NCBI GenBank assembly: GCA_024137785.1
Contig: JAHRHZ010000019.1
Location: 1,024,155 to 1,069,314 of the forward strand
DNA from: Ginglymostoma cirratum
Lineage: Eukaryota
Direction: 5' to 3'
DNA: 45,160 nucleotides
Below are positions 7,181 to 37,423 of this stretch, in pieces. Both the position numbers and the translations under genes were made by a program. Under the pieces are notes generated by a model. It had not been told where the DNA came from, did not search any database, and saw only the letters and a program-made list of their open reading frames with translations. The number at the start of each line of letters is the position of its first letter. Position 1 is the stretch's first letter.

Positions 7181-9029
7181 ATCAGGTTTGTCATGAAACC
7201 CACTTCCTGAAATTGATCAAATAATTCCAATAAATGCTCCAAATGTCAATGTACACCACACAATTGGGTAATCCTGAACTGATTTGAGTGGGTAGTCTTT
7301 GAAACGTTGCTGGTGCAGTTTTTGTACCAAATGGCATGATTTTAAATTGGTACAGTCCATTTGGTGTCACGAAAGCCAAAATTTCATTCACTCTTTCAGT
7401 CAAGGTACTTGCCCTTATCCACTGAATAAGTCCAACTTAGAAATATAAGTTCCTTGTCCCACTTTTCCAAAACAGTCTTCCAAACAAAGAATAAGATATG
7501 AAAAAGATTTTGTAACTACATTGACTTTGCGATAGTGCACACATAATCATTGGGGACCATCTGTTTACTGCACCGTTACTATGGGTGAACTCCAGTCACT
7601 GCAACTCACTTCAATTATGTTGTTTTTGAGCATGCATTCATTCTCTTTTGAACCTGTGCCAACTTTCAGCAGTCAAGTCAATAAGGATGTTGTTTAATTG
7701 GAACAGCATTTCCTATATTTCTTTCATTTGTAATTAGGTTAGTATTTGCCAGCTTATTCCCAAGTATGTCTCCCTGTGATTGTAATATCTCTTTCAGGTA
7801 ATTTTGATTTTCCTCTGAAAAGTAACTCAATAATTTATCTCAAAGTTTGAGAACTTCCTCATTATCCAATTTAATTCGAGGAATGTCCACTTCATAATCA
7901 CCTGAACTTGGTTCTTCACCCTGTCTTGTAACCAGTAACACAGACTCCTTTTGCTTTCCTTCCCTATCAAAACACCTTTTGAGTAAATTCACATGACACA
8001 TTCTGTGAGATTTCTCTCTACCTGGTGTTCTTATCAAATAATTCACCTCACTCAATCTCTTTTAGGTTTTGTAAGGCCTATTAAATTTTGCTTTTAAAGA
8101 TTCACCTCTCACTGGTGGTAACATTAACTTTTAATTTCCACTTGAAAAATTGCAAAATTTTGATTTCTAGTCAGCTTCCTGTTTCATCACATGCTGTGCT
8201 ACTTTTAAAAGGTGTTTAACCAACTCACCTGCTCTATTTAATCTTTCACTAAAATTCCCTAAAACATAATCCAAACATATGCCTTTGAACTCTGAATTGC
8301 CAACTTTTCCTAAATGAATTTCAGTGTTCATCTCACCTCATGCCGTAAAACCTAATTCAAGTGGACTGAATTGAGTTGATTCATTAGGTACATTCCTATT
8401 TGCAAAAATTACAAGTGGAATTTCTTTATCCCAATCCTTTGGATAGTCTTGATAATAAGCCCTCAAATGTTTGATGCCACCATTCTAGTGCTGTCTGTGA
8501 TTCTGAATGGTACATAGTGGCTTTAAAGTGTTTAATTCCAAAGCTATCTATAGCTTCCTTGAATAGCTTTGATGTATGCTGGATCTGATTGTAACATCCT
8601 ATAAACACACCCTTGGCAAAAACAAGTTCAGTGAAATAGATTGTCTCACATACAATTCTCGCAGCACAAAGAGCACCCCAGCTTCTAGCTGGAACAGAGA
8701 AAGGAATAATTGGTTCCACATCAAGCTTCAAGACCCCAGCAACTGCAGAAAGCTAAAACTCAAAATTCCCTTTCTCTGAACAGTCCTAAACTATCACCTC
8801 TCATCAGGAGAAACTGTTTTATATGTCTAATACCCTCCAGGATTCCGTGAATTGAAACATGAAGGCTTTAAAGCAATATGTCTTTCTCCCAAATAGAAAA
8901 CAATCCAATTCTATCAAACAGAAAGAACCTTAATGATTTCAACGTTCTGCTCACAAAATCTCTCCCACTGAAAACAAATTCCCATTTGCACTCTAAGAAC
9001 TATCAGATTGATTTTTTTAAAAATGGTAC

Positions 9030-14562: not shown

Positions 14563-14910
14563 CGCGTGTGTGTGAGTTAATCAAATTGCAGAGATTGATT
14601 TCCACACAACATTCAGTGACACACAGCTCTAATGATGTCCTGACACCAAATGGGACTGACTGCTCTCCGCTGGTTTATGCAGCTTTGCTCTTCATTTCAG
14701 TGAAGCTTTCCCAGACTGTTCCTCATTTATACAAAATGTAGCAGATCCACAAGCTTCTCCTGAGCCCTTGTTGGTGTTCCAGAAACGTATCGTTAAGGTC
14801 TCTAATAAACAGACTGATCCACTGGCTGTAATATCTAATAGAAAACAAAGAAATTTTACAAACTGTGAACTAGCAACAGATGCACAATGTAAGGATGTTT
14901 GTAATATTAC

Positions 14911-14978
14911 CTTATTGTAACATTTTAAATTCTCGCCGAGTACATAGCTTTGGAATCTTCCGCAAAATCTCCTGAGAA
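14911..14978 (-). pseudogene. Cytoplasmic-tail exon (FSGDFAEDSKAMYSARI*)
   Basis: Acceptor atctctttccag|, donor aag|gtaata. Phase 0 matches the upstream exons. Stop at 14925-14927. Confidence 0.55.
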
Positions 14979-15116
14979 CTGGAAAGAGATGTACAGAAGT
15001 GTTTAAAACATTGTTCCAATTGGTTTCTGAGGTCCCTGGGATGATGCACTGTCTTTGGTTGTTTCTTCAATCAGCTGCGCATCATATTTAAACCCGGAAC
15101 AGCTATTAAGTCTGAC

Positions 15117-15137
15117 CCGAACAGATTTGTAAAGGAG
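15117..15137 (-). pseudogene. 21-nt cytoplasmic micro-exon LLYKSVR (ITIM-like)
   Basis: Strong acceptor ctttgtgtttctctgcag|, donor cgg|gtcaga, phase 0/0. Confidence 0.5.
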
Positions 15138-15823
15138 CTGCAGAGAAACACAAAGCGATGGATATTCCCCAAATTGATAATAATGTGTCTCAATCACAGA
15201 GAATACGGTCGAAAGAATCATGCAGATACAAAAATAAAGTTCTGGGAACTGCATCAAAACCCAATCAGCTGAGGGGGTGAGGAATTGTCACAGAGCAGAT
15301 TTCATGGTCCCAGCCACTGACGCAAACGATGAAAGTACAAGGTCATCTTTCATGAGCTGAAGATGTGAAAGATTAGATTGGAAAGCTTTACACACTGCCC
15401 ACAGTGTCCCTCTGGTTATGGGGTCCCAGACACACATTCGCAGCAAATCGTGCAGATGAAGAGGATCACGTTAAAGAACAGGGACCTCTGATGGAATGAA
15501 AGTCACCCTTGCAGCCCGCCCCTCCCACGAGGAGGTGCTATTCCTCAGAAGTGATACTATCCACAAATAACGCCTGGTCTTTCACCAAAGACTAGTGATC
15601 TAACATGACGCTATTGAACGGTAGAGCGGGCTCGAAAGGCTGATGACCCACTGGTCTTCCTATTTCCTACGATCTCCATAGACCCTCGATATCAGGATGT
15701 GTCACACCTCTTGCTCCAACTTGGAAATTCGGCGCTCAGTGGCAAAGACTCAAAACACACGGTCAGACGTGTCCCATCAGACAGAGCCTTGCCAAGACAG
15801 AATTCAACAACTTTAAAAACTAC

Positions 15824-15881
15824 CGTTCTCATATTTTCATAATCTGCAGTTGTGTTTGGATCATCACTGCTCCAGATTGTG
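15824..15881 (-). pseudogene. Cytoplasmic exon TIWSSDDPNTTADYENMRT
   Basis: Acceptor ttgatctttgctttcacag|, donor acg|gtagtt. This is the only open frame and contains YENM. Confidence 0.65.
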
Positions 15882-16355
15882 CTGTGAAAGCAAAGATCAA
15901 ACACTTCTTGCCATCAGTTCAAATAATTTTCATTACATTGATCTGCTGCCAACAGTCTCTCCATTCCCAGCTTGCTGAACACGTTGTTCTGGTCTTTCCT
16001 GTTCTAGTAGGACAGTTGGGGGCAGAGTGGCAATATCACTGTTTATCGGAATCTAGAGGCCCAGGCAAAAGCTCTGGGAGTTGATTTTGGATTTGGGTCC
16101 AAATTTGGATCTGATTTGGATGCCTCTTCTGGTAAGTTGTGGCCTGGTCAATGTTCGGATGGTTTCCTATCCCTCAGAGTAACTATCATTGGATCCTGGG
16201 AGGTTTTTGTAAAATTCCCTTCATTTACACTTAATGGCCTGGGCGATAGGGCATCCCTTTCAGTTACAGAATACTCATTCTTCATTCTTCAGAATCTCAC
16301 ACCTGACTACTAATGTCAATGTTACCTTATCCTCTCCATCACTTGCTCGTTACTG

Positions 16356-16560
16356 GGGGTGGGGGGGGGGTGGTTAGCTCAGTTGGTTGGTTGGCTGGTT
16401 TCTGATGCACTATGACAACAGCAGCTGAGGACACCATGTAGGACTCTCCTTCTCAATCTGTCCCATCATCTGAGGCATGTTAAAGCACCCCCAGTCGTCC
16501 CTCTTTCGTGAGAGAATAGCTCTATGGTCCAGTGAGATTATGTAACTTTATGTGACTTAA
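16356..16560 (+). mobile_element. tRNA-derived SINE (second family)
   Basis: Head ggttagctcagttgg; a related copy lies on - at ~43380-43565. Confidence 0.6.
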
Positions 16561-16564
16561 GGTG

Positions 16565-16830
16565 CATTGGTTCCAAACCCAGCAGATTTCAGTTATTATT
16601 TATTGTTAAAACAAATTCTGGAATTAAATCCTAGTCTCAATGATGGTGACCATGAAACTGTCTTTGATTGTTGTAAACACCCATTTAGTTCACTAACACC
16701 CTTTAAGGAAGGAAACTACCATCCCCATGTAGTCTGTCCTGCATGTGACTCCAGGTCAACAGTAATGTGGTTGGGTCTGAACTGCCCTATGGGCAATCAC
16801 AGATGGACAATGAATACTGGCTGTGAATGA
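16565..16830 (+). mobile_element. tRNA-derived SINE with CR1-like tail, 5'-degraded
   Basis: gaccatgaaac...gttcactaa...catgtgactccag...gggcaatc, as in 4295-4650. Confidence 0.75.
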
Positions 16831-16881
16831 ATCAAACAGAGCCAGATATAATAATCAAGACAAAGTGAATGATTAACTCAC

Positions 16882-17001
16882 AGGTGGAGGTCTGTTTTTT
16901 TCTGAGATATGTGGATGCAATGAATACAATTACTCAAATAATTCCCAACACAGCCCACAGAATGAGCCAAATAAGTTTCATCTTCCAAATGTGTTTGATT
17001 T
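16882..17001 (-). pseudogene. Transmembrane exon of a type I receptor with internal TGA
   Basis: gttcctttcacag|(E)IKHIWKMKLIWLILWAVLGII*VIVFIASTYLRKKQTST|gtgagt. 120 nt, phase 1/1, hydrophobic span followed by an RKK stop-transfer signal. TGA at 16934-16936. Confidence 0.75.
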
Positions 17002-17889
17002 CTGTGAAAGGAACTGACATGTTTAAGCTGTTATACGTCGCATCTACTTGGACAGAGGTGGCAATTGGTGCCCAACGGTGATTGATATCTGTGTGATCAC
17101 CCTTTACACATGCAAACACGATAGCACCATTTATACTTTCCTGTAGAAGATCCATGATGGTGTTGTGCTTCCCAGAATCTTTGTAATTACAGAATTGTCG
17201 AAATTTTACCCAAGCATCTAATGCAGGTTCAAAGAGTAAGTTATTTTTAATTTACCCATTTTTCTAATCAGCCCGTTCAGGGATGTTATTTTACACCTCT
17301 TAAACTGGCAGGGCTTGAAATTACGGTTCACGATACTGAGGTAGAGACTCTACCACCATGCACAACAAGGTTTTCATTAACAGGAAAATCACGATTTACT
17401 GCAAATTCTGGTCCCAGTCAGAATCACACACATCAATGAGTTGCTATATGACTTGCTGAGGTAATGAGCATTCTCTGCTCACTGTTTGAGACAACATTTC
17501 CGTGTGTTCCAGTAATCTTTAACGGTAAAACTACAAACACCTTCTCACACAGTTTCCTTGATTTAAAGCAGTATCTTCTTCCATTTTTGGTCCACAGTCC
17601 ACAAAATACAAATGGTCTTTACATGGCTGCACCCTTGGGAGAGATGAAGCATCATTTCAGAAAAAGGGTTTGATCTCGAGGACAAACTGTTGGAACAGGC
17701 ACCCTTCTCCGATACACAGACAAATATCAGGCTCCACAATCAGTCAGTTCCGTGAGGAAATGTTGGGAACTTTCCAAGCTGGTGTTGACCTAAAAGGCCA
17801 CACTTCAGTATGGCAGTAATCAACATCATTGGCTGAACTCGATCGGACATGATGTGGGTCTGAACACAGTCACAAAGTGCAATGACAGT

Positions 17890-17903
17890 CCAGCAGAGGG
17901 CAA
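17890..17903 (+). promoter_or_regulatory. Candidate CTCF site
   Basis: ccagcagagggcaa closely matches the CTCF core CCAGCAGAGGGCGC, in apparently non-repeat DNA. Confidence 0.35.
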
Positions 17904-18749
17904 CTGAGTGCTCTCAGTGTGTGACCAGTTTGGCTACTTCAGAAAATGCTGTGTTAACAGCATCTTCATTACAGAACAAAGATCAGTTCCTGCAAGAGGA
18001 GAATGGAAAATGGAAGTTATTCAACAAGGATAGAGTTCAAGGAAATAAACATAGAAAATAAAGCCTGTACCCCTAGAGCAGGTCAAAGAGAGACATAACA
18101 GATTCTGAACCATCAATGTGAAGGTGCAAGGCTTTGAAAAAGCTTGGAAACGTGGCACAGGAGTAGCTGTTTCAATGCAGGCAAACAGCTTGCCTCTGTT
18201 GAAGTCAGTGAGAGTCAGAAAGATCTCCAAGGACCAGAAGGCACAGATCCTCAGGAGTGAAGACTGATCACAGCGAAGATTAGTTACTGTGAGTGAAATT
18301 GCACTGAAGCATTATGTATCCTGGACAATCAGCCTGCCTCATTGCTGAACAGTAATGCAAATATTTGCCTAGATTTCTGGAAGACTGAAACCACTCAGAG
18401 AATCCTCTCGATTGACAAACATTGCCGCCTGCAAAATGCGGCAACATCTTAGGCCCATTTCATGAATGTTGCCGGTGTACATGATATTTGCCTATCATGT
18501 GATCAACATTGCTGGCCCACAGATCACAGTGAAATGTTAGAGTGCACCTTCAGTCACTGTCACAGCTTCACAGTATCTACCTGACCTGTGAATAGAAAAT
18601 TACAGATCAAAACAGATGAGAAACCTCAAAAATGATCACTTGGAAATGAAGCTATGATAAAATCTCTTGGATAGCATCAATAATTGTTATGAATTCTCAC
18701 TAGTAAGTCTGAACAAAATTGTTTTAGACAAGATTAAGCACAAAAGGGT

Positions 18750-22989: not shown

Positions 22990-24480
22990 TTGTTGATACT
23001 TAACATTGACAAGGCACCAGGATGGGATGAGATGCATCCCAAGACATTGAAGGAAGAGAAAGCAAACAATTCAAGGGCCTCGGCCACAATCTCTCAGTCT
23101 TCTTTCAGCATGGGGGATGTGCCGAGACTAGAAACTTGCAAACATTACATCCTTGTTGAAGAAAGGTTATGACAACAAGCCCCACATTAACTTCAATGGC
23201 AGGATGATTTTGGTGATAATTATTTGGGATAGAATTAATAATGGAAAAATGCAGATTGGCTTGGAAGAACCAGCGTAGATTTCTAAAGGGGAAATGATGT
23301 CTCACTTAATTGCTGGAGTTTTTCAAAGAGGCAGTAGAAAGGTTCAGTGAAGGTAATGCTGCTCATGTGGACCATAAGGATTTCAAGAAGGCAGTAGATG
23401 CAGTGCCACATGATGGACTTGTGAGGAATGTAATCAGTCAATATAAAAGGGACAGTGACAATGTGGATACAAAACTGTCTGCGTGATTGGAAACAAGAGG
23501 TTAACGGTCAATGGATATTTTTTGGGCTGGGTGAGGTTTGTAGTGGAGTTCTCCAGGGGTTGTAATTGGGTCTGTTGCTTTTCCTGATATATATGAATGA
23601 TCTGACTCATTGTGTGCAAGTGACAGCTACAAAGTTTCTCGATGACATGGAACTTCGAGGAATTGTAAACCTTGAAGAAGACAATATGAGAGTCCAAAAG
23701 GACATTGGCAAGTTGGTGGAATGGGCAAGTAGGTGGCGGATGAAATTCAATGCAGACAGTAGTGTAAGATGTAAGGTCAGAAGAACATCCAAAAACAGTC
23801 TAAAATAGGGGGTGCAATTCTAAAGTGGAGCAGAGGGACCTGGGTACATCTGCGCACAGAGCATTGAAGTGACAGACAGGTGGAGAGAGCAGTCAATAAA
23901 GTAAACAGTGGCCTCAGCTTTATTAACAGAGACAGAGAGTGTACAAGAGCAAAGAAGTGTGGAACTTGTACAAGGCACTTGTTCGTCCTCAGCTGAAGTA
24001 TTGTGTACAGTTGTGGGCACCACATCATAGGAAAGATGTGATTGCATTAGAGAGGGAGTGCAATGGTTCAAGGGATAAGGAACTTCAGCGATGAGGGCAG
24101 ATTGTCGAAGTTGGGGCTGTTCTCCCTGGAGAGAAGTCTGAGAAGAAATCTGATAGTGGATTTCAAAATCATGAGCTGGTGTAGATGGGTAGATGGGGAG
24201 AAGGTGTTTCTGCTTGTAAAAGGAACAAGAATGAGAGGGATGTGGATTTAAAGTGACCTGCAAAAGGTGGAAGTGTGATGTGAGACAAAAGCTTTTTTAA
24301 AACAGCACTGCCTGGAAATGTGGTGGAGGCAAGTTCACCTGAGGATTTCAGGAGGATATTTGATGCTGATTTGGACTGAAATGGTTTGCAGGGATATGGA
24401 GAAAACACAGGAGATAGTGACAAGGTAATGATGTTTATTTGAAATTCAGGGTGGCCTCCTGTGCTGTAATATTTTTCTGA
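22990..24480 (+). mobile_element. Decayed CR1 LINE RT/3' fragment
   Basis: LNIDKAPGWDEMHPKTLKE; LLFLIYMNDL...KFLDDMEL...EWASRWRMKFN; LSKLGLFSLERSLRRNLI. Confidence 0.85.
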
Positions 24481-24799
24481 TTCTGCTCTTCCCCTTTGAG
24501 CCTACACTTGTCCCCATCCCCTAACCATTCTGGCCCTGATCCACACACCTCCCTCCACCCCATTGTCCAAGCTCCTGTTTCTGTAACATTCAGTGATACT
24601 CCACCCCGCTAAAACTATCTGCTACCACAGTCCTGAAATTCAATTCACCCACATCCCACTCCCTCCTATCATGAATATTTGCTCTCAGTGCTGTCAGTCT
24701 AACCCCGCAACCCCATATTAGAAGGTACAAACCCACCCTTGAAATCTATCCCTCTTCCATCACACTTGCCTGGAAACGCTCACACCTCCCCCACCTCCC

Positions 24800-27700
24800 T
24801 TATGTGATCTATTTGGATGTCAACAAGATCTTTGACAAGGTGCCATATAGGAGATTGTGAAATAAGATCAGAGCCCATGGAATTAGGGATAAGGTACTGG
24901 CATGGACAGAAGATTGTCTAATTGGCAGAAGGCAAGAAGCAATGGTAAAGGCTCTTTTTCAGGATGGCAGCCAGTGATTAGTGGAGTTCCACCGGCTCAG
25001 CGATGGGATTACAACTGTTTGCATTATACATTAATGATCTGGACACAGGAACTGAGACCATTATTGCTCAGCTTACGGGTGACATAAAAATAGGTGAGGG
25101 ACAGTTAGTGTTGACTAAGTGGGCAGGCTGCAGAAGGACTTGGACAAGCTCGGAGAGTTGGCAAAGAAGTGGCAGATGGCATACAATGTTGGAAAGTGTG
25201 AGGTTATGCACTTTGTTAGGAAGAATAGAGGCATGGACCGTTTTCTAAATGGAGAAAGGCCTCAGAAATCTGAAGCATAATGGGACTTGGGAGTCTTGAT
25301 TCAGCATTATTTTAAGGTTAACAAGCAGGTTAAATTGCTGGTTAGGAAAGTAAACACAACGTTAGCATTCATTTCAAGAGGGCGAGAAAACAAGAGCTGA
25401 GATAGACCGCATTTGAAATATTGTTCACAGTTTTGGACTCCTTATCTAAGGAAAGATCTACGACCATTGGAGGGGGTCCAGAAGAGGTTAATATAAATTA
25501 TTCTGGAGATGAAGGGCTTGTCATACGAGTATCGATTGAGGACTTTGGGTCTGTGCTTAATGCAGTTCAGAAGGAAGAAAAGGGATTCGATTGAAACTTA
25601 CAGAATAATGAGAGGCCTGGACAGAGTGGGTATGGAAAATGCTCCCACAAGTAGGAGAGACTAGGTCCATAAGACCGTAAGACCATAAGACATAGGAGCA
25701 GAAATTAGGCCATTTGGCCCACTGAGTCTCCTCTGCCATTCAATCATGGCTTATAAGTTCCTCAACCCCATTCTGCTGCTTTGTCCCTGTAACCCTTGAT
25801 CCCCTTGACAATCAAGAACCTATCTATCTCAGTCTTAAATGTACTCAATATCTCGCCTCCACAGCCTTCTGTGGCAGTGAAATCCATAGATTCACCACTC
25901 TCTGGCTGAAGAAGTTTCTCCTTATCTCCATTCTAAAAGGTCTTCCCTTTACTCTAAGGCTGTGCCCTTGGGTCCTAGACTCTCCTACCATTGGAAGCAT
26001 CTTCCCAACATCCACTTTTTCCAGGCCATTCAGTATTCTGGAAGTTTCAATTAGATGCCCCCTCATCTGTCTAAACTCCAGTGATTATAGTGCCACAGTC
26101 CTCAAATGTTCCTCATATGTTAAGCTTTCCATTCCTGGGACCATTCTCGTGAACCTCCTCTGAACCTGCTCCAGGGCCAGTATATCCTTCCTAACATATG
26201 GGGCCCAAAACCGCATGCAATACTTCAAATGTGGCCTGGCCAGAGCCTTATAAAGCCTCAGCAGTATATTCCTGCTTTTATATTCAAGTCCTCTCAAAAT
26301 AAATGCCAACATTGCATTTGCCTTCCTGACTACTGATTCAACTTGCAAGTTTACCTTGAGAGAATCCTGCACGAGAACTCCCAAGTCTTTTTGCACTTCA
26401 GACTTCTGAATTTTCTCCCCATTTAGAAAATAGTCCACGCTTTTGTTTTTCTTACGAAAGTGCATGACCTCACACTTTACCACATTGTACTCCCTCTGCC
26501 ACTTCTTTGCCCACATTCCTAACCTGTCCAAATCATTCTGCAGCCTCGCCACCTCCTCAATACTACCTGTCCCTCCACCTATCTTTGTATCATCTGCAAA
26601 CTTAGCCAGAATGCCCACAGTTCCTTCATCTAGATCATTAATGTATAAAGTGAAAAGTTGTGGTCCCAACACTGACTCTTACGGAACTCCACTTGTCACC
26701 AGCTGCCATCCTGAGAAAGACCCCTTTATCCCTACTCTGCTTTCTGCCAGACAGCCAATTTTCTATTCTTATCTTACTCAGCAGCCTCCTGTATGGCATT
26801 TTATCAAAGGCGTTCTTGAAGCCCAGGTAAATAACATGTATTGGCTCTCCTTGGTCTACACTGCTCGTTACTTCCTCAAAGAATTCTAGCAGATTTGCTA
26901 GAACTCCCCTTGATGAAACCATGCTGACTTTCCCTACTTTACTATGCACTTTCAAATATTCAGCAATCTCATCATTTACAATGGACTTCAAAATCTTACC
27001 CACGACTGAGGTTAGGCTAATTGGCCTGTAAGTTTCCGTCTTTTGCCTCACACCCTTTTTAAACAGGGGTGTCATGTTAGCGGTTTTCCAGTCCTCTGGG
27101 ACCCGCCTTGACTCTAGTGATTCCTGAAAGATCACCACTAACACTTCCACTATCTCTTCAGCTATCTCCTTTAGAACTCTGGGGGGTCGTCCATCTGGTC
27201 CTGGTGATTTGTCCACCTTCAGGCCAATCAGTTTTACTAGCACCTTTTCCTTGGTGATGGCCGCCATACTCAGCTCTGCCCCCCTGATTCTTTTGAATTT
27301 TTGGGATATTACTTGTGTCTTCCACCGTGAAGACTGATGCAAAGTAATTATTCAGTTCCTCAGCCATTTCCTTGTTCCCCACTACCATCTCTCCACCGTC
27401 ATTTTCCAGTGGTCCAATGTCCACTTTTGCCTCTCTTTTGCCCTTTATATACCTAAAGAAACTCTTACAGTCTCCATATTTATTACTGGCTAATTCACCC
27501 TCATATTTAATCTTCTCCGTCCTTATTTCTTTTTTTGTTGCCCTCTGTTGGTCTTTGTAAGCTTCCCAGTCCTCTCGTTTCCCACTGCCCTTCGCCACAT
27601 TATATACTTTCTCTTTTGATTTTATGCTATCCCTGACTTCCTTAGTCAGCCATGGATGCCTCCTGAGTGCACAGCCTCGGGAGTGAAGGGACAACCCTTG

Positions 27701-27950
27701 AAAACTGACATGAGGAGGAATTTCTTCAACCAGAGGCTGGTTGATCTGTGCAATTCATTGCCTTGAGGGCTGTGGAGACCAAGTCTTCCAGTGTATTCAA
27801 GACAGAGACTGGTCAGTTTTTCATTAGTTAGGGGATCAAGGTCTACAGAGAGAAGGCAGGAGAATGGGTTGAGAAGCATATCAACCATGATTGAATGGTG
27901 GAGCAGTCCCAATGGGCCAAATAGTCTAATCCTGTTCCTGTATGTTATGA
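24800..27950 (+). mobile_element. CR1 LINE (host) interrupted by an opposite-strand CR1
   Basis: RT pieces in 24800-25667 (LQLFALYINDLDTG). The sequence gagactaggtcc resumes as tcctgagtgcacagcctc at ~27661 and continues into the 3' UTR. Confidence 0.8.
25667..27660 (-). mobile_element. Younger 5'-truncated CR1 LINE (RT)
   Basis: ORFs 27158-27694, 26638-27342, 26085-26672 ([16 protein letters not shown]) and 25845-26066; (tcttatgg)n tail at 25667-25692. Confidence 0.92.
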
Positions 27951-28168
27951 CCTTATCGGGGTCACCATATGCCAGACACAATTGTCCTCCTTCATTTTGA
28001 ACTGGACACTCTTCTTTTCTTTACAAGCTCTGTCAGGCTACCTGTCTGCTTCCTGCTTGGTTGGACAGCACCATCATAAGACCATAAGACCATAAGACAT
28101 AGGAGTGGAATTAAGGCCATTCGGCCCATCGAGTCCACTCTGCCATTTAATCATGACTGATGGGTATT

Positions 28169-31115
28169 TCAACTCCACTTACCTGCATTCTCCCTGTAGC
28201 CCTTGATTCCATGCGAGATCAAGAATTTATCAATCTCTGCCTTGAAGACATTCAACGCCCCGGCCTCCACTGCGCTCCGTGGCAATGAATTCCACAGGCC
28301 CACCACTCTCTGGCTGAAGAAATGTTTCCTCATTTCCGTTCTAAATTGACCCCCTCTAATTCTAAGGCTGTGCCCACGGGTCCTAGTATCCCCACCTAAC
28401 AGAAACAACTTTCCAGCGTCCACCCTTTCTAAGCCATGCATTATCTTGTAAGTTTCTATTAGATCTCCCCTCAACCTTCTAAACTCTAATGGATACAATC
28501 CCAGGATCCTCAGCCGTTCATCGTATGTTAGGCCTACCATTCCAGGGATCATCTGTGTGAATCTCCGCTGGACATGCTCCAGTGCCAGTATGTCCTTCCT
28601 GAGGTGTGGGGCCCAAACTTGGACACAGTATTCTAAATGGGGCCTAACTAGAGCTTTATAAAGTCTCAGAAACACATTGCTGCTTTTATATTCCAACCCT
28701 CTTGAGATAAATGACAACATTACATTCACTTTCTTAATCACGGACTCAACCTGCAAGTTAACCTTTAGAGAATCCTGTACTAGCACTCCCAGATCCCTTT
28801 GTACTTCGGCTTTATGAATTTTCTCACCGTTCAGAAAATAGTCCATGCCTGTATTCTTTTTTCCAAAGTGCAAGACCTCGCATTTGCTCACGTTGAATTT
28901 CATCAGCCATTTCCTGGACCACTCTCCTAAACTGTCTAAATCATTCTTCAGCCTCCCCACCTCCTCCGTACTCCCTGCCTATCCACCCAACTTCGTATAT
29001 CGGCAAACTTCGCCAGAATGCCCCCAGTCCCTTCATCCAGATCGTTAATATATAAAGTGAACAGCTGCGGCCCCAACACTGAACCCTGCGGGACACCACT
29101 TGTCACCGGTTGCCATTCTGAAAAAGAGCCTTTTATCCCAACTCTCTGCCTTCTGTCAGACAGCCAATCCCCAATCCATGCCAGTAACTCACCTCGAACA
29201 CCATGGGCCCTCACCTTACTCAGCAGCCTCCCGTGAGGCACCTTATCAAAGGCCTTTTGGAAGTCAAGATAGATAACATCCACTGGGTTTCCCTGGTCTA
29301 ACCTACTTGTTACGTCCTCAAAGAATGCTAACAGGTTTGTCAGACACGACCTCCCCTTACTAAATCCATGCTGACTTGTTCTAATCCGACCCTGCACTTC
29401 CAAGAATTTAGAAATCTCATCCTTAACAATAGATTCCAGAATTTTACCAACAACCGAGGTTAGGCTAATCGGCCTATAATTTTCCATCTTTTGCCTTGAT
29501 CCTTTCTTAAACAAGGGGGTTACAACAGTGATTTTCCAACCTTCTGGGACTTCCCCTGACTCCAGTGACTTTTGAAAGATCACAACCAACGCCTCTGCTA
29601 TTTCCTCAGCCACCTCCCTCAGATCTGTAGGATGTAGCCCATCGGGGACAGGAGATTTATCAATTTTTAGACCTTTTAGCTTTTCTAGCACTTTCTCTTT
29701 TGTAATGCCTACCATACTCAACTCTGCCCCCTGACTCTCCTTAATTGTTGGGATATTACTCATGTCTTCCACTTTGATGACTGATGCAAAATACTTATTA
29801 AGTTCTTCAGCTATTTCCTTATCTCCCATCACTAGCCTTCCAGCATCAGTTTCGAGCAGTCCAATGTCTACTTTTGCCTCTCGTTTGTTTCTTATGTATT
29901 GAAAGAAACTTTTGGTATCATTTCTAATATTACTGGCTAGCCTACCTTCTTATTTGATCCTCTCCTTCCTTATTTCTCTCTTTGTTATCCTCTGTTTGTT
30001 CTTGTACCCTTCCCAATCTTCTGATTTCCCAGTGCTCTTGGCCACTATATAGGCTTTCTCTTTTTCTTTGATACATTTCCTGACTTCCTTTGTCAGCCAT
30101 GGCTGTCTAATCCTCCCCCCGGATAATTTTTCTTTTCTTTGGGATGAACCTCTGTATTGTGTCCTCAATTACACCGAGAAACTCCTGCCATTGTTGCTCT
30201 ACTGTCTTCCCCGCTAGGCTCTGCTTCCAGTCGATTTTCGTCAGTTCCTCTCTCATGCCCTTGTAGTTGCCTTTATTTAACTGTAACACCATTACATCCG
30301 ATTTTGCCTTCTCTCTTTCAAACCGCAGACTGAACTCTACCATGTTATGATCGCTGCCTCCTAAGTGTTCCCTTACTTTAAGGTCTTTTATAAAGTCTGG
30401 CTCGTTACATAGCACTAAGTCCAGAATAGCCTGCTCCCTTGTGGGCTCCATCACAAGCTGTTCCAAAAAGCCATCCTGTGGGCATTCCATGAATTCCCTT
30501 TCTTTGGATCCACCGGCAATATTATTCACCCAGTCCACCTGCATATTGAAGTCCCCCATGATCACCGTGACCTTGCCTTTCTGACATGCCCTATCTATTT
30601 CCCGGTGCATCTTGCACCCCTGGTCCTGACCACTGTTCGGAGGTCTGTACATAACTCCCATTATGGTGTTCTTTGCCTTTGTGGTTCCTCAACTCCACCC
30701 ACACAGACTCCACGTCATCTGACCCTGTGTCATTCAGTGCTATTGATTTAATTTCATTCTTAACTAACAAGGCAACCCCACCCCCTCTGCCCACCTCCCT
30801 GTCTTTTCGATAAGTTGTAAATCCTTGGATGTTTAACTGCCAGTCCTGAACCCCCTGCAACCACATCTCTGTGATGCCTACCACATCGTAATCATTCAAG
30901 ATGATTTGTGCCATTAATTCATCTACTTTGTTACGAATACTACAAGCATTTAGGTAAAGTTCCTTAATGCTAACTTTCTTATCATTATTAGAGATGTTGG
31001 AAATCATAAGATGTTCTAAGTTATCCTTCCTTTTTGCTGCATTCTTAGTCTGCCTCGAGCTTAAACCCACCTGCTCACATGCTATCCCGCTGCTTATCAT
31101 TCCATTTAACTCCAT
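28169..31115 (-). pseudogene. CR1 ORF2 (APE endonuclease + reverse transcriptase), broken by several frameshifts
   Basis: YLNACSIRNK, VGITEMWL, GVMYRPPNS, MGDFN, SDHN; [34 protein letters not shown]. Confidence 0.9.
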
Positions 31116-31146
31116 ACACCCTGTCGCTTTCCCTTCCCCCGCTGAC

Positions 31147-31677
31147 TCAGAAGTTTAAAGTCCTACTGACCACCCTATTTATTCTTTTCGCGAGAACACT
31201 GGTTCCAGATCGGTTCAGGTGGAGACCGTCCCAACGGTACAGATCCCCCCGGTTCCAAAACTGATGCCAATGCCCCATGAAATGGAATCCCTCTTTCCCA
31301 CACCAATCCCTTAGCCGTGTGTTTACTTCCCTAACTTTCTTATCCCTATGCCAATTGGCACGTGGCTCGGGCAGTAATCTGGAGATTATGACCCTTGAGG
31401 ACTTGTACTTCAATTTCCTTCCTACTGCTTGATAATCCCTGAACGGGTCCTCTACCCTAGCTTTGCCGATGTCGTTAGTCCCAACATGGACCGCAACAAC
31501 TGGATCCTCCCCCTCCTGCTCCAATATCTTTTCAAGCCGATCGGAGATGTCCTGCACCCTCGCACCGGGCAGGCAACACACCATGCGGGACTCCCAATCC
31601 GGCCTGCATAGGATACTATCTGTCCCCCTAATTATCGAATCCCCTATAACAACGACTTGTCTTTTTGCTCCCCCCAT
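31147..31677 (-). CDS. CR1 ORF1 SGNH-hydrolase/esterase domain
   Basis: VVVIGDSIIRG, CLPGARV, VHVGTND and DGLHLN blocks (GDS, GxND, DxxH). Confidence 0.85.
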   Translation of the reverse strand: MGGAKRQVVVIGDSIIRGTDSILCRPDWESRMVCCLPGARVQDISDRLEKILEQEGEDPVVAVHVGTNDIGKARVEDPFRDYQAVGRKLKYKSSRVIISRLLPEPRANWHRDKKVREVNTRLRDWCGKEGFHFMGHWHQFWNRGDLYRWDGLHLNRSGTSVLAKRINRVVSRTLNF

Positions 31678-31871
31678 CCCATTGCCTCAGTGAGCAAAGA
31701 GTGTACAGTCATTGCTGCTGTCTGAAATCCATCAGGAAAACATCATTGCCCTTTACATGTTGCTACCATCCAGTTAGGAATCTTAAAACAGGTTTTGTAC
31801 AATCATCGAAAACTTCATTGTAAAGGGGAACTTAATTTGAGCTTCCTGAAACTTAATATCAAGAAATTCAG

Positions 31872-32520
31872 GGACAACAAGGTGCAGAGCTGGATGAACA
31901 CAGCAGGCCAAGCAGCATCAGAGGAGCAGGAAGGCTGACGTTTCGGGCCTAGACCCTTCTTCAGAAAAGGGTCTGANNNNNNNNNNNNNNNNNNNNNNNN
32001 NNNNNNNNNNNNNNNNNNNNNNNNNNNNNNNNNNNNNNNNNNNNNNNNNNNNNNNNNNNNNNNNNNNNNNNNNNNNNNNNNNNNNNNNNNNNNNNNNNNN
32101 NNNNNNNNNNNNNNNNNNNNNNNNNNNNNNNNNNNNNNNNNNNNNNNNNNNNNNNNNNNNNNNNNNNNNNNNNNNNNNNNNNNNNNNNNNNNNNNNNNNN
32201 NNNNNNNNNNNNNNNNNNNNNNNNNNNNNNNNNNNNNNNNNNNNNNNNNNNNNNNNNNNNNNNNNNNNNNNNNNNNNNNNNNNNNNNNNNNNNNNNNNNN
32301 NNNNNNNNNNNNNNNNNNNNNNNNNNNNNNNNNNNNNNNNNNNNNNNNNNNNNNNNNNNNNNNNNNNNNNNNNNNNTCAGACCCTTTTCTGAAGAAGGGT
32401 CTAGGCCCGAAACGTCAGCCTTCCTGCTCCTCTGATGCTGCTTGGCCTGCTGTGTTCATCCAGCTCTGCACCTTGTTATCTCAGATTCTCCAGCATCTGC
32501 AGTTCCTGCTATCTCTGAAA
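31872..32520. mobile_element. Fold-back Penelope pLTR mini-element spanning a 400-N gap, 12-bp TSD
   Basis: TSD caagaaattcag at 31860-31871 and 32521-32532. The gap flanks are exact reverse complements. Intact CTGAAGA-agggtctaggccc-GAAACGTC on both arms. Confidence 0.8.
31977..32376. other. Assembly gap (400 N)
   Basis: Run of N. Confidence 1.
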
Positions 32521-32979
32521 CAAGAAATTCAGCTTGCTTTAAAATTCCAAGAATTTAATTCCAAATGATCATCCCACCTCCTGGAAATTGGTTTTCATCC
32601 CAAGAAGTCCTCCCTCCTGCTTTGTTCCCATTCCCAAGAATGGCACAAGATTCTACCCTCTACCTTAGAGTGGAGTATATCTCATTAGAATAACAACAAA
32701 AAAACAGACACATGCAACACAGAAAATAAACACTGCATTCTCCTTCCACTGGGGAATTAGCAACACAGGAGCAACTGCTGATACCAGTATGAATCCACAG
32801 TGACTTATTCCCTTCCTCTCTCAGTAACTGGTTATCAGAGGATCTCACTTCTACACAGGACACTATCATCAGTAACTCTCAAACACTGTCTTGCCTCGAA
32901 GTCACTCTTCCTCTCACAAGACCCACTGCCAGACTTGATGGACAATTCAGTTAAAGAGGTGGTGCACTATCCTCTCTCT

Positions 32980-33222
32980 GAAAATCATGGAACAGAAGTC
33001 GGCCATTCAGCCCCTCTAGACTGCCCCACCAGTGAACACGGTCGTGGCTGATCTCATCTTGGCCTCAACTCCACTTTAATGCCCATTCCTCATAACCCTT
33101 TGAAATGTTACCATTAAAAAGCTGTCTCCTCCTTAAATTTATTCCATGTCCCAGTATTCACCACTCATTGGGTTAGTGAATTCCACAGATTCATGGCCCT
33201 ACGGAAGAAATATTTCATCCTC
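32980..33222 (-). mobile_element. CR1 3' end fragment
   Basis: ggaacagaagtcggccattcagccc...gaattccacagattc 3' UTR signature. Confidence 0.7.
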
Positions 33223-33229
33223 AAGAGAG

Positions 33230-36030
33230 AACCAAGAACAAAGGAGAAGTACAGCACAGGAACAGGCCCTCCAAACCTTATCATCATGCCTTACACAACT
33301 ATAAAAACAAACCATCTGCCCTTATTCAGTCTGTATGCCTCTATTCCGTCCCGACTCATGTAACCATCCAAATACATCTTAAATGTCTCCAACATGCCTG
33401 CTTCCAGCACCTCTTCTGGCAGTGCATTCCAGGCTCCTAACAGTTTTGGCATGAAAAACCTCCCTCACACATCTCCCTGAACCTTCTCTCTCTAACTTTG
33501 AAGCTGTGCCCCGTTGTAACTGAAACTTCAACTCTGGGAAAAAACCTCTGACGATCCAACCTATCTATGCTCCCCAATTTTGTAGACCTCTATCAGGTCT
33601 CCTCTCTGTCGTCATCTTTCCAGTGAAAACAATCCTCATTTTTTTAAAGTTTTCCCCATAGTCAATACACTGGAGACCAGGCAACATCCTGGTGAACCTT
33701 CTCTGTGCTCTCTCCAAAGCTTCCACATCCTTCTGGTAATGTGGTGACCAAAATTGCACACAACACTCCAAATGTGGCCTAGCCAGGGTTTTATATAGCT
33801 GCAACATGGTTTGCCAGCTCTTGTACTCCATGCCCTGGCCAATGAACGTGAGCATGCCATATAACTTCTGAATCTCTTTGGCTACTTTTAGGTAACTGTG
33901 GACCTGCATGCATCTGTTTGTTAATGTCACTAAGGGTTCTGTCTTTTACAGTGTAATTCACACCTAAATTTGATCCTCCAAAATGTGTCATCTCGCATCT
34001 GTCTGGATTAAACTCCATCTGCCATTTCTGTGCTCACGTCACCAATTTATTTATATCCTGTTGTATCCTTTCACAATGATCAGCACTATCAGCAGCTCCA
34101 CCAACCTTCATGTCATCTGCAAACTTCCTATCCAGACCACCCACATTTTCCTCCAGATCATTTATATATACTACAAACAGAGGACCTAAGACTGATCCCT
34201 ATCGAACATTAGTTACCAGTCCCCATCCTGAAAAGCACCCTTCTACTGCTACCTTCTGTCTTCTATGACCAAGCCAGCTTTGCATTCATCTAGCAAGCCC
34301 ACACCAAATCTCATGTGATTTCAGTTTTTGTACCAATCTGCCATGTGGGACTTCAATCAAATGCCTCACTAAAGTCTGTATAAACTACATCCGATCAGAT
34401 TGATGAAACATGAACTTTTTCATACAAAACCATGCTGCCTGTTGCTAACTAGTTCAATTTCTTCCAAATGTGTATATATCTTGTCCCTCAGTATCTACTC
34501 CAAGAGCTTCCCCAACACAGATGTCAGGCTCACCAGACTATAATTTCCTGGATTATCCCTGCTTCCTTTCTTAAACAATGGAACGACATTGGCTAATCTC
34601 CAGTCCTCTGGAACCTTATCTGTGGTCAAAGAGGATGTGAAGGCGAGGGGGAGGCCATGGCATAATGGTATTATCGCTGAACTGTTATTCCAGATAATGT
34701 TCTGAGGACCTGGGTTCAAATTCCCCCTCAGCAGACAAAGGAATTTGAATTTAAAAAAGAAAATCTGAAATGAAGAGTCTGACAATCACTATGAACCCAT
34801 TGCCAATTGTTGGGGAAAAACCCATCTGGTTCACTCATGTCCTTCAGGGAAGAAAACTGCCATCCTTACCCAGTCTGTCCTACATGTGACCCACAGCAAT
34901 GTCATTGACTCTTAATTGCCCTCTGAGCAATAAGTTCTGCCGAGCCAGCTACACCCTCATCCCATGAAAGAATAAAGAAGATATCAGCTAAAGTCCCAAT
35001 TATTTCTTCCACTGCAACCTGTGATAGACCCCATCTGGCTCTGGAGCCTTGTCTACTTTAATGCAATTCAGGATACCCAAAAATTCCTCCTTCAATATAT
35101 TGACATTCTCTAGAGTATTCACACACTCATCCCTGACCTCATCAGCAGTCATGTCCTTCTCCTTGATGAATACTGATACAAAGTACTCATTAAGGATCTC
35201 GCATAATTCCTGTGGCTCCATGCATAACTTCCCACTTTTGTCCTTGAGTGGGCCTACTCTTTCCCTTGCTACATTCTTTCTTCTAATATATGAATAAAAA
35301 GCCTTGGGATTCTCCTTGAATCTGTTTGCTAAAGACATTTCACAGCCCCTTTTAGCCTTCCTAATTCTGCATTTAAGTTCCTTCCTAATTTCTCTATACT
35401 CCTCAAGGGCTTTGTCAGTTTGTAGCTGCCTAGACCTATTGTATGCTTCCTTCTTCCTTTCATTTCAGCTTTGAATTTCCCGTGTCATCCATGGTTTCTG
35501 AATCCTGCCATTGCTATCCTTCAGTTTTGCAGGGACATGCACGTCCTGCACTTAAATCAACTGGTCTTTAAAAACATCCGCATGCCAGACATAGATTTGC
35601 CCTAAAATACCTGCCGATAATCCACATTCCTGAGTTCCTGTCTAATTTGGATGTAATTGGCCCTTGCCAAATTAAACACCCTCACCCAAGGGCCACTCTT
35701 GTCCTTGTCCATGACTACTCAAAATCTTATGGAGTTATGGTCACTAAGCCCAAAATGCTCTCCTACTGTAACATTGATAACCTTTTGTGGCCCATTCCCT
35801 AATATCAAGTCTCGAATGGCCTCCTCTCTGTTTGGATTGCCAACATATTGTTTCAAAAAGCCCTCCTGGACACATCTAACAAATAGCTCTCGTTCTGAGC
35901 TCCTGGCTCTAAGGGAGTCCCAGTCAATCAGAGGAAAGCTGAAGTCACCCACCACAGCTACCTTGCTTTTTTCACACCTTTCCAGTATCTGACTACATAC
36001 CTGCTCCTCTGTCCTCCTCATTTGTTTCAA
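33230..36030 (-). mobile_element. Decayed CR1 LINE (EN-RT-3') with nested SINE
   Basis: VAVVGDFSFP..SDHNSIRF; KENPKAFYSYIR; VPEDWRLANVVPLFKKG; LQLYKTLARPHLECCVQFWSP. Confidence 0.9.
34646..34980 (+). mobile_element. tRNA-derived SINE with CR1-like tail
   Basis: gaggccatggcataatggtattatcgct...gggttcaaattcc...cccatgaaagaataaag. Confidence 0.85.
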
Positions 36031-36216: not shown

Positions 36217-36307
36217 TAACAAGCATGGGGCTGGATGAACACAGCAGGTCAAGCAGCATCATAGGAGCAGGAAAACTTGACGTTTCGGGCCTAGACCCTT
36301 CATCAGA
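36217..36307 (-). mobile_element. Penelope pLTR fragment beginning at the hammerhead core
   Basis: Reverse complement tCTGATGAagggtctaggcccGAAACGTCaagttttcctgctcc...ccccatgcttgtta, near-identical to 6471-6565. Confidence 0.85.
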
Positions 36308-37423
36308 TATAAACAGGAGCGACAGGGATTCTCCAGGAGACTGAGTTGACAAACCAACAAAACACAAACCTGAATTGCTTTGACTGCCAGTGCCGCAGAA
36401 ACCTGACATCTTCCTGCCCGGCTCATGATCCTGTGAGTTTACTGAAGGTTTCAGTGTGGATAAGAATTCAGGATGGATACACCACAATCCCTGGTCACTT
36501 GTTAACATCATAGAATTCTCACGTCTCAGTTTGCTGGATCTATCTGTTGGAGGTTGGAATATAGACAAAGATAAACAAGATCTATGTTCAGGGCTCATTC
36601 CAGTTTAGAACAAAAACAGGATTTGCTGGAGAAAATCAGCAAGCCTGGCAGTATCTGAGGAGAGAGAAACCAAGTTGACATTTTGAGTCCAACATAACTT
36701 TTGACCATACTGGACTCAAAATATTGACTCGTTTCTCTGTCCAAAAATACTGTGCCAGGCCTGCCGAGTTTCTCTGCAGCTTTTGTTTCCAATTGTCAGC
36801 ATCCATCCTACTTTATTTGTAAATGATTGTAGTTTGCTGTGTTCTGTGTAATATTACAATGCAACATGTATATCACTTCAGGAAGCTGAGCAAAGAAATG
36901 GTGACACCAAATAAAGTACGATGGATGCTGGCAATTGGAAACAAAAGCTGCAGAGAAACTCGGCAGGCCTGGCATAGTATTTTTGGACAGAGAAACGAGT
37001 CAATATTTTGAGTCCAGTATGGTCAAAAGTTATGTTGGACTCAAAATGTCAACTTGGTTTCTCTCTCCTCAGATACTGCCTGGCTTGCTGATTTTCTCCA
37101 GCAAATCCTGTTTTTGTTCTAAACTGGAATGAGCCCTGAACATAGACCTTGTTTATCTTTGTCTATATTCCAACCTCCAACAGATAGATCCAGCAAACTG
37201 AGACGTGAGAATTCTATGATGTTAACCAGTGACCAGGGATTGTGGTGTATCCATCCTGAATTCTTGTCCACACTGAAACCTTCAGTAAACTCACAGGATC
37301 ATGAGCCGGGCAGGAAGATGTCAGGTTTCTGTGGCACTGGCAGTCAAAGCAATTCAGGTTTGTGTTTTGTTGGTTTGTCAACTCAGTCTCCTGGAGAATC
37401 CCTGTCGCACCTGTTTATATCTG
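36304..37423. repeat. ~515-bp inverted duplication (arms 36304-36819 and 36908-37423, ~88-bp spacer)
   Basis: Mirror ORFs MSPEHR.. and METKAAE.. on both strands; only about 9 substitutions by eye. Confidence 0.95.

Follow-up and report, generated by a model that had tools for sequence, protein, structure and literature searches.

Shark NCR3/NKp30, the CD28 family and UrIg/UrIg2 have non-rearranging single-exon VJ (or GxG) domains, and NCR3 signals through a charged transmembrane (TM) segment. NITRs of ray-finned fish form a clustered multigene family with joined VJ domains and with inhibitory and activating forms, as described in the accessible parts of two reports (PMC3022915, PMC11599192). 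NILTs of carp and salmonids and CEACAM1/CEACAM3 are paired receptors that carry an ITAM or ITIM in their own tails, distributed over small exons. The ITAM of the CEACAMs is split by a phase-0 intron, and such an intron inside the first YxxL is typical of ITAMs according to the available text of PMC2110893. Among immunoglobulin light chains, the IgL sigma-2 class (sigma-cart, NS5, type I) is germline-joined in skates, coelacanth, gar and turtles, as far as the accessible text of PMC5985310 and PMC5192425 goes.

The window analysed here, a stretch of 45,160 nucleotides from Ginglymostoma cirratum, holds what is very probably a dead gene, and its importance lies in the family to which this gene belongs. 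The large receptor family is apparently undescribed in the literature searched, a provisional statement since key subscription papers lie outside that search. A search of longer proteins with an intact neighbouring V exon gave 107 homologs among 146 candidates, and all named organisms among the 107 are sharks and rays. Callorhinchus, a chimaera, has members as well, one of which comprises three V domains and a TM in a model without a tail. The homologs are gene models, and the family structure given here is the predicted one. A search with the TM and tail of Heptranchias returned six proteins, all within the existing homolog set. The database names of the family proteins are automatic and inconsistent. 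In an Atlas search, the whole protein matched V-set clusters at 0.94-0.97, the first of which is probably its own, followed by NCR3-like and CD7 clusters, and the tail alone matched nothing above 0.83. Only antibody fragments appeared among the 60 matches listed in a PDB search.

The ectodomains consist of tandem single-exon VJ domains, exclusively V-set, numbering one to nine per homolog and mostly two to four. An RSS is absent after all 14 family V exons checked, and each of these exons continues through the J strand to a splice donor. The GxG of the J strand lies seven residues after the Cys in 286 of 310 domains, and the junction reads C-x-V/I-W-G-x-I-F/Y/S-G, with the Trp kept in 279 of 296. 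Like the NITRs, the family is clustered, has joined VJ domains and includes inhibitory and activating forms; however, the second NITR domain is of the V/C2 type, whereas the domains of this chondrichthyan family are all VJ exons of one V type. NILT domains are NKp44-like with extra CX3C-CX7C cysteines, whereas 251 of 290 family domains have just two cysteines, together with the J-type GxG strand. More than two cysteines occur in 39/290, so that the extra V-domain cysteine pair of the NILT/CD300/MDIR type is not the rule. NCR3 and CD28 members have one V domain each, compared with at least two in 101 of the 107 homologs. The family does not fit the single V with a PPP/EIP CDR3 motif that the accessible part of PMC11599192 gives for the CD28 family. 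UrIg, unlike the family, has C1 domains. Rows of the NCR3 and CD28 kind show only 23-24% identity to the family (UrIg stands outside the tree). The IgL sigma-2 class has V frameworks up to 54% identical to those of the family, aligns without gaps to its commonest domain type, and shares the short W-G-x-I-x-G junction in the joined light chains P0111-P0115. In contrast to these light chains, the family is without C1 domain or RSS, has tandem V exons, a TM and a tyrosine tail, and is no antibody chain.

TM segments were called by a hydropathy cut-off and are present in 82 of the 107 homologs. A charged residue was found in the TM 19-mer of only one of these 82, unlike the TM of NCR3/NKp30. An ITIM+ITSM pair is carried by 35 of the 82, and 20, from 13 species of sharks and rays, carry the ITAM YxxL/I-x7-YxxL/I with a spacing that is always 7. 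Two YxN sites are found in 6/82, and the tails are of other kinds, short or truncated in 21/82. The genome of G. cirratum holds at least roughly fifteen gene units, intact and broken and with all three tail kinds, at the starts of contigs C18 and C19. ITAM and ITIM+ITSM tails alternate within one cluster. The multi-VJ receptor genes there (C19 783-1040 kb and C18 12-259 kb) lie in both orientations, and many copies are broken. Both clusters stand at the starts of long contigs and are likely one locus split by the assembly. Of 248 C1-set candidates, 150 matches were scored, and none has a place on C18 or C19. As to linkage to the MHC, a trait of NCR3/NKp30, the class I matches lie on C2, C146 and C197 (28/28) and none on C18 or C19, contigs not being chromosomes. 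Some ITAM and ITIM genes (P0004, P0018 and P0069 vs. P0003) have the same TM and first tail exon, which suggests that tails may have been swapped between genes. A plus-strand gene at C19:999888-1009596 has five open V exons and a tail seemingly without the ITIM+ITSM last exon; it faces the ITAM exons of a gene on the minus strand that yielded no TM exon. A divergent single-V member (P0152, P0255; C19:893263) lacks a clear TM in its model, which closes with two Y-A-N motifs.

Intact relatives with ITAM tails are likely type I receptors and the activating members of an on/off family. Their predicted layout is a row of VJ domains, a TM free of charged residues, a YxN site and finally an ITAM. From known ITAM biology, both ITAM tyrosines would be phosphorylated by a Src kinase once ligand had clustered the receptors. 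Syk/ZAP-70 would then dock on the phosphorylated ITAM, and the YxN site could bring in Grb2-type adaptors. By the same analogy, members with an ITAM would need no DAP12 or FcR-gamma adaptor chain, and members with ITIM+ITSM would recruit SHP-1/2. Ectodomains common to both tail kinds would make these paired receptors under birth-and-death turnover, and the window copy would be a casualty of such evolution. Shark NK and myeloid receptors are little known, and the family provides a large conserved candidate set, activating as well as inhibitory.

Outside the family, the best match to the query in the genome, at 88.8 bits, is a joined VJ exon of C168 that precedes a light-chain C1 exon; the VB type of the family itself scores lower, 75.5 bits. 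This germline-joined exon with a six-residue junction and its C1 exon (L073:6370-6714 and 7852-8109) adjoin split V genes of the same class, and its orthologs in three other carpet sharks (P0113-P0115) are 81-90% identical. Its relatives are annotated light chains in 11 of 18 hits, with the short junction in some and the longer split-gene junction in others. We take this class to match type I of the horn shark. An assignment of the C168 V exons to TCR-gamma was dropped, as they adjoin light-chain C1 exons. Further single-exon VJ genes (L093 and L094 on C166, and the L071 region at C168:36860) are unrelated to the receptor family; one of them, closely followed by a C1-set match, is presumably PRARP-like.

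Comparisons of the V domains gave the same IgL class as the nearest non-family V for all 22 domains tested. The mean identity between the family and the class is 38.7%, vs. at most 30.4% for 14 other groups. A family HMM gives IgL-class domains 93-130 bits, and 66 bits to the next best in a set of other new search hits and 59 V exons of the same genome. A framework-only tree of 80 rows, out of 114 prepared, places the family and the IgL class together with a support of 99/98. In a second framework-only tree of 71 rows (14 long or redundant non-family rows dropped, 15 family rows kept and 17 rows added, with divergent members, teleost sigma and tetrapod-type lambda among the additions), the corresponding support is 92/50. 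Both trees were built without shark sigma, UrIg and NITR rows, and their outgroup labels (IgH, TCR, NCR3-like, CD28-like) come from motif recognition rather than from database names. Both trees place the family beside the IgL class, as its sister, rather than within it. AU tests on 94 columns have no power and rejected none of three alternatives, namely IgL monophyly without the family (p 0.106), the family with NCR3-like rows (p 0.31), and the family with three of the joined light chains P0111-P0115 (p 0.33). Thus, the kinship rests on similarity and bootstrap. The CDR1 and CDR2 lengths are 8 and 7 in the VA and VC types, with small indels in the VB type, and these are the sigma-2 lengths in the accessible text of PMC5985310. 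The nearest IgL class is likely sigma-2, as judged from CDR lengths and mixed split and joined loci rather than from a named record.

We infer from these comparisons that the ectodomain would come from the IgL sigma-2 lineage, as a VJ exon joined in the germline and duplicated. Our tentative account, plausible but far from secure, is that more than 400 million years ago, in cartilaginous fish, a sigma-2 VJ exon joined by RAG gave rise to germline paired innate receptors, in which the exon multiplied in tandem and was fused to ITAM, ITIM+ITSM or YxN tails swapped between genes. If the family VJ exon had instead never been split and dated from before RAG, as a relic with IgL sigma-2 for its sister or with ties to NCR3, the split sigma-2 genes would require a second RSS insertion or homogenisation, and we regard such an origin as unlikely. 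The sister rather than nested position in both trees fits a relic, as do the extension of the family to a chimaera, the joined state of sigma-2 in skates, coelacanth, gar and turtles (PMC5985310, PMC5192425, in their accessible parts) and the AU tests, which reject no other placement. However, the family identity is 24% to NCR3-like rows vs. 39% to the IgL class, the family junction has the same form as the short one in the joined light chains P0111-P0115, and a grouping with three of those light chains is likewise not rejected. The commonest family junction (93/296) has a Ser at the J-strand position occupied by Phe in light chains. The light-chain Phe packs against VH, and its replacement hints that the family domains may bind ligand without a heavy-chain partner.

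Single-exon VJ genes have been sought as relics of the gene that RAG invaded, according to the available text of PMC12227049, and germline joining has been proposed, in the accessible part of PMC2193156, as a possible source of a new gene family. A VJ family nearest to one light-chain class would represent a relic far closer than the ones considered so far, or else an instance of a new gene family made by germline joining. If the sigma-2 origin is true, innate immunity would have regained parts from the adaptive system, and the mere fact that a VJ occupies one exon would not mark a pre-RAG relic.

The TM and tail exons of the window are on the minus strand. DNA and protein searches of the same genome gave only two copies of this TM and tail (2/2 matches), the one in the window and the other at ~255-259 kb on C18. 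The two copies show ~83-86% identity, and six intron stretches are 81-88% identical; therefore, the copies are paralogs and each can be read against the other. The TM and tail of the C18 paralog are open; each splice junction is AG/GT, and the phases are 1-1-0-0-1. Its tail reads a YxN site and then YxxL-x7-YxxL, an intact ITAM that is broken in the window copy. The membrane-proximal V exon of the paralog is frameshifted, and the paralog may be dead or may skip this exon.

The TM exon of the window (17001-16882, 120 nt, AG..GT, phase 1/1) encodes an uncharged segment, as a sequence-only reading of the window had stated for this strand, and contains a TGA at 16936 in place of the Gly codon of the paralog. 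Cytoplasmic exon 1, with the YxN site, follows at 15881-15824. Its paralog counterpart is 65 nt long, entered in phase 1 and left in phase 0. Compared with the paralog, the window exon is 1 base short at 15867/15866, and a 16-nt deletion between 15825 and 15824 took its last codons and its donor. The sequence-only reading had let this exon start in phase 2 and had postulated a missing or decayed exon between it and the TM exon. However, the exon starts in phase 1, as seen in the paralog and in the TM-skipping isoforms P0257, P0258, P0262, P0263 and P0265, where the direct joining of V to cytoplasmic exon 1 fixes this phase. The phase clash is due to the 1-nt deletion, and therefore no exon is missing. 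Four homologs (P0052, P0061, P0054 and P0041) align to the TM and tail exons of the window in order, and in them the YxN exon is followed directly by the first ITAM exon. The GT at 15823, taken earlier for the donor, is not the original one, which was lost with the 16-nt deletion, and the reading 'TIWSS' is out of frame ('IWS..D' occurs in 0/107 homologs). A candidate for the missing exon near 16003-15937 opens with a stop, leaves a 55-nt intron and is not followed by a donor in the paralog; given the 1-nt deletion, it is needless. In the TM-skipping isoforms the TM is skipped in frame, giving predicted soluble forms that retain the ITAM tail.

Cytoplasmic exon 2 (14978-14937, 42 nt) has phase 0/0 in both copies. 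In both, its final codon is the one after the first ITAM tyrosine, and the first YxxL is split by a phase-0 intron as in the CEACAMs. The exon 2 donor is GC in the window and GT in the paralog. The terminus 'YSARI*' proposed earlier arose by intron read-through, since the exon ends at 14937 and 'ARI*' lies beyond it; two later exons had been missed. The first of these, cytoplasmic exon 3 (14834-14791), carries the remaining part of the ITAM and has 44 nt in the window vs. 43 nt in the paralog. The 1-nt insertion produces a stop immediately after the second tyrosine, and the donor is AT in the window and GT in the paralog. The model P0260 reads past the exon-3 donor, as expected from the paralog DNA. 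The last coding exon (14337-14312, phase 1, seven codons and a stop) is the only window exon free of lesions, which affect the other 5/6. The tail is thus a YxN site and a split ITAM rather than the mix of YxxM and ITIM suggested before; the Met after YxN is Val or Ile in most homologs.

The gene's own V exon, of type VB, is decayed and retains only its 5' half (18585-18373, minus strand), with deletions of 22 nt and 1 nt, a stop and 75% nucleotide identity to C18:229749-230132. The match to the intact paralog exon stops at 18373, and the 3' half is absent. Beyond it, at 18372-18044, the paralog match skips from the middle of the V exon to the intron preceding the TM, and ~330 nt of unrelated DNA lie at the break. 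A large deletion that took the membrane-proximal V exon(s) is implied here by the alignment. No leader or further V exon was found upstream of the TM and tail within the window. An open frame of 105 codons (17251) that precedes the TM was rejected as a domain exon, as it has no homology in the relatives and is partly unalignable with the paralog. With high confidence, the window copy is a pseudogene, the 3' half of a gene for a shark cell-surface receptor, and most likely has no protein product. The earlier proposal of a 3' receptor half that signals through tyrosines and comes from the same VJ-exon family is borne out.

The acceptors at 15881, 15137 and 14978, on which three tail exons had been proposed, are present, and the quoted peptides can be read there. 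The exons at 15881 and 14978 are real. The 21-nt micro-exon encoding LLYKSVR (15137-15117, minus strand) is probably intron sequence, at most an alternative exon. For this candidate, 19/22 bases are identical between the copies, vs. 81-88% for the six flanking intron stretches. An ITIM-like micro-exon of this kind occurs in 25/1535 tiles of 845 nt, and any Tyr-bearing one in 408/1535. A genuine ITIM exon at LLYKSV, perhaps used alternatively to make an inhibitory isoform of the ITAM receptor, is very improbable, as YKSV is absent from all 107 homologs and from all 16 further cluster members. The pyrimidine-rich AG acceptor and the tyrosine are kept in both copies, the frame in the paralog runs through an ITIM-like hexamer, two codons and a stop as expected of an alternative last exon, and the scarcity of such micro-exons (just 25 tiles) also speaks for it. 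However, the paralog has no GT donor, the conservation equals the intron background, and the reader who proposed the exon was free to pick among several introns and motif types. Junction reads for it are lacking too, a weak point at a depth of at most ~2-3 reads.

RNA data from four runs over 14600-18700 contain no splice joint of any kind at this depth, and one run has no match. One run gave 24 reads (10 at 99%+), and two runs gave 13 and 23 contigs, mostly repeat-derived. The YxN exon has zero coverage in the same thin data, which neither back the junctions proposed earlier nor establish silence. The near-exact reads and the contigs on the window copy are unspliced, sparse and in the sense direction, and the window copy is not wholly silent in transcription. 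That it still functions as a secreted decoy or a regulatory non-coding transcript is hardly credible: the stop inside the TM would free an ectodomain, some relatives have annotated isoforms without a TM and the sparse reads are sense-directed, but the V exon is frameshifted and without its 3' half, no leader or other V exon precedes it within the window, the reads are few and unspliced, and the exons are conserved between the copies no better than the introns (TM 81%).

Two further VJ exons lie on the minus strand of the window, one frameshifted (12190-11847) and the other with two stops (497-154). Both sit 3' of the last exon of the TM and tail gene on the same strand and therefore cannot be its ectodomain. 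The VJ domain at 154-497, offered earlier as the model for the N-terminal domain of this gene, thus belongs to another gene. The two exons are parts of a further broken family gene downstream, which runs past the left edge of the window. On the other side of the TM and tail gene, dense LINE-like fragments (reverse-transcriptase/endonuclease) occupy the minus strand at 24000-36000, and an inverted repeat of 1.1 kb with 94% identity is located at 36304-37423.
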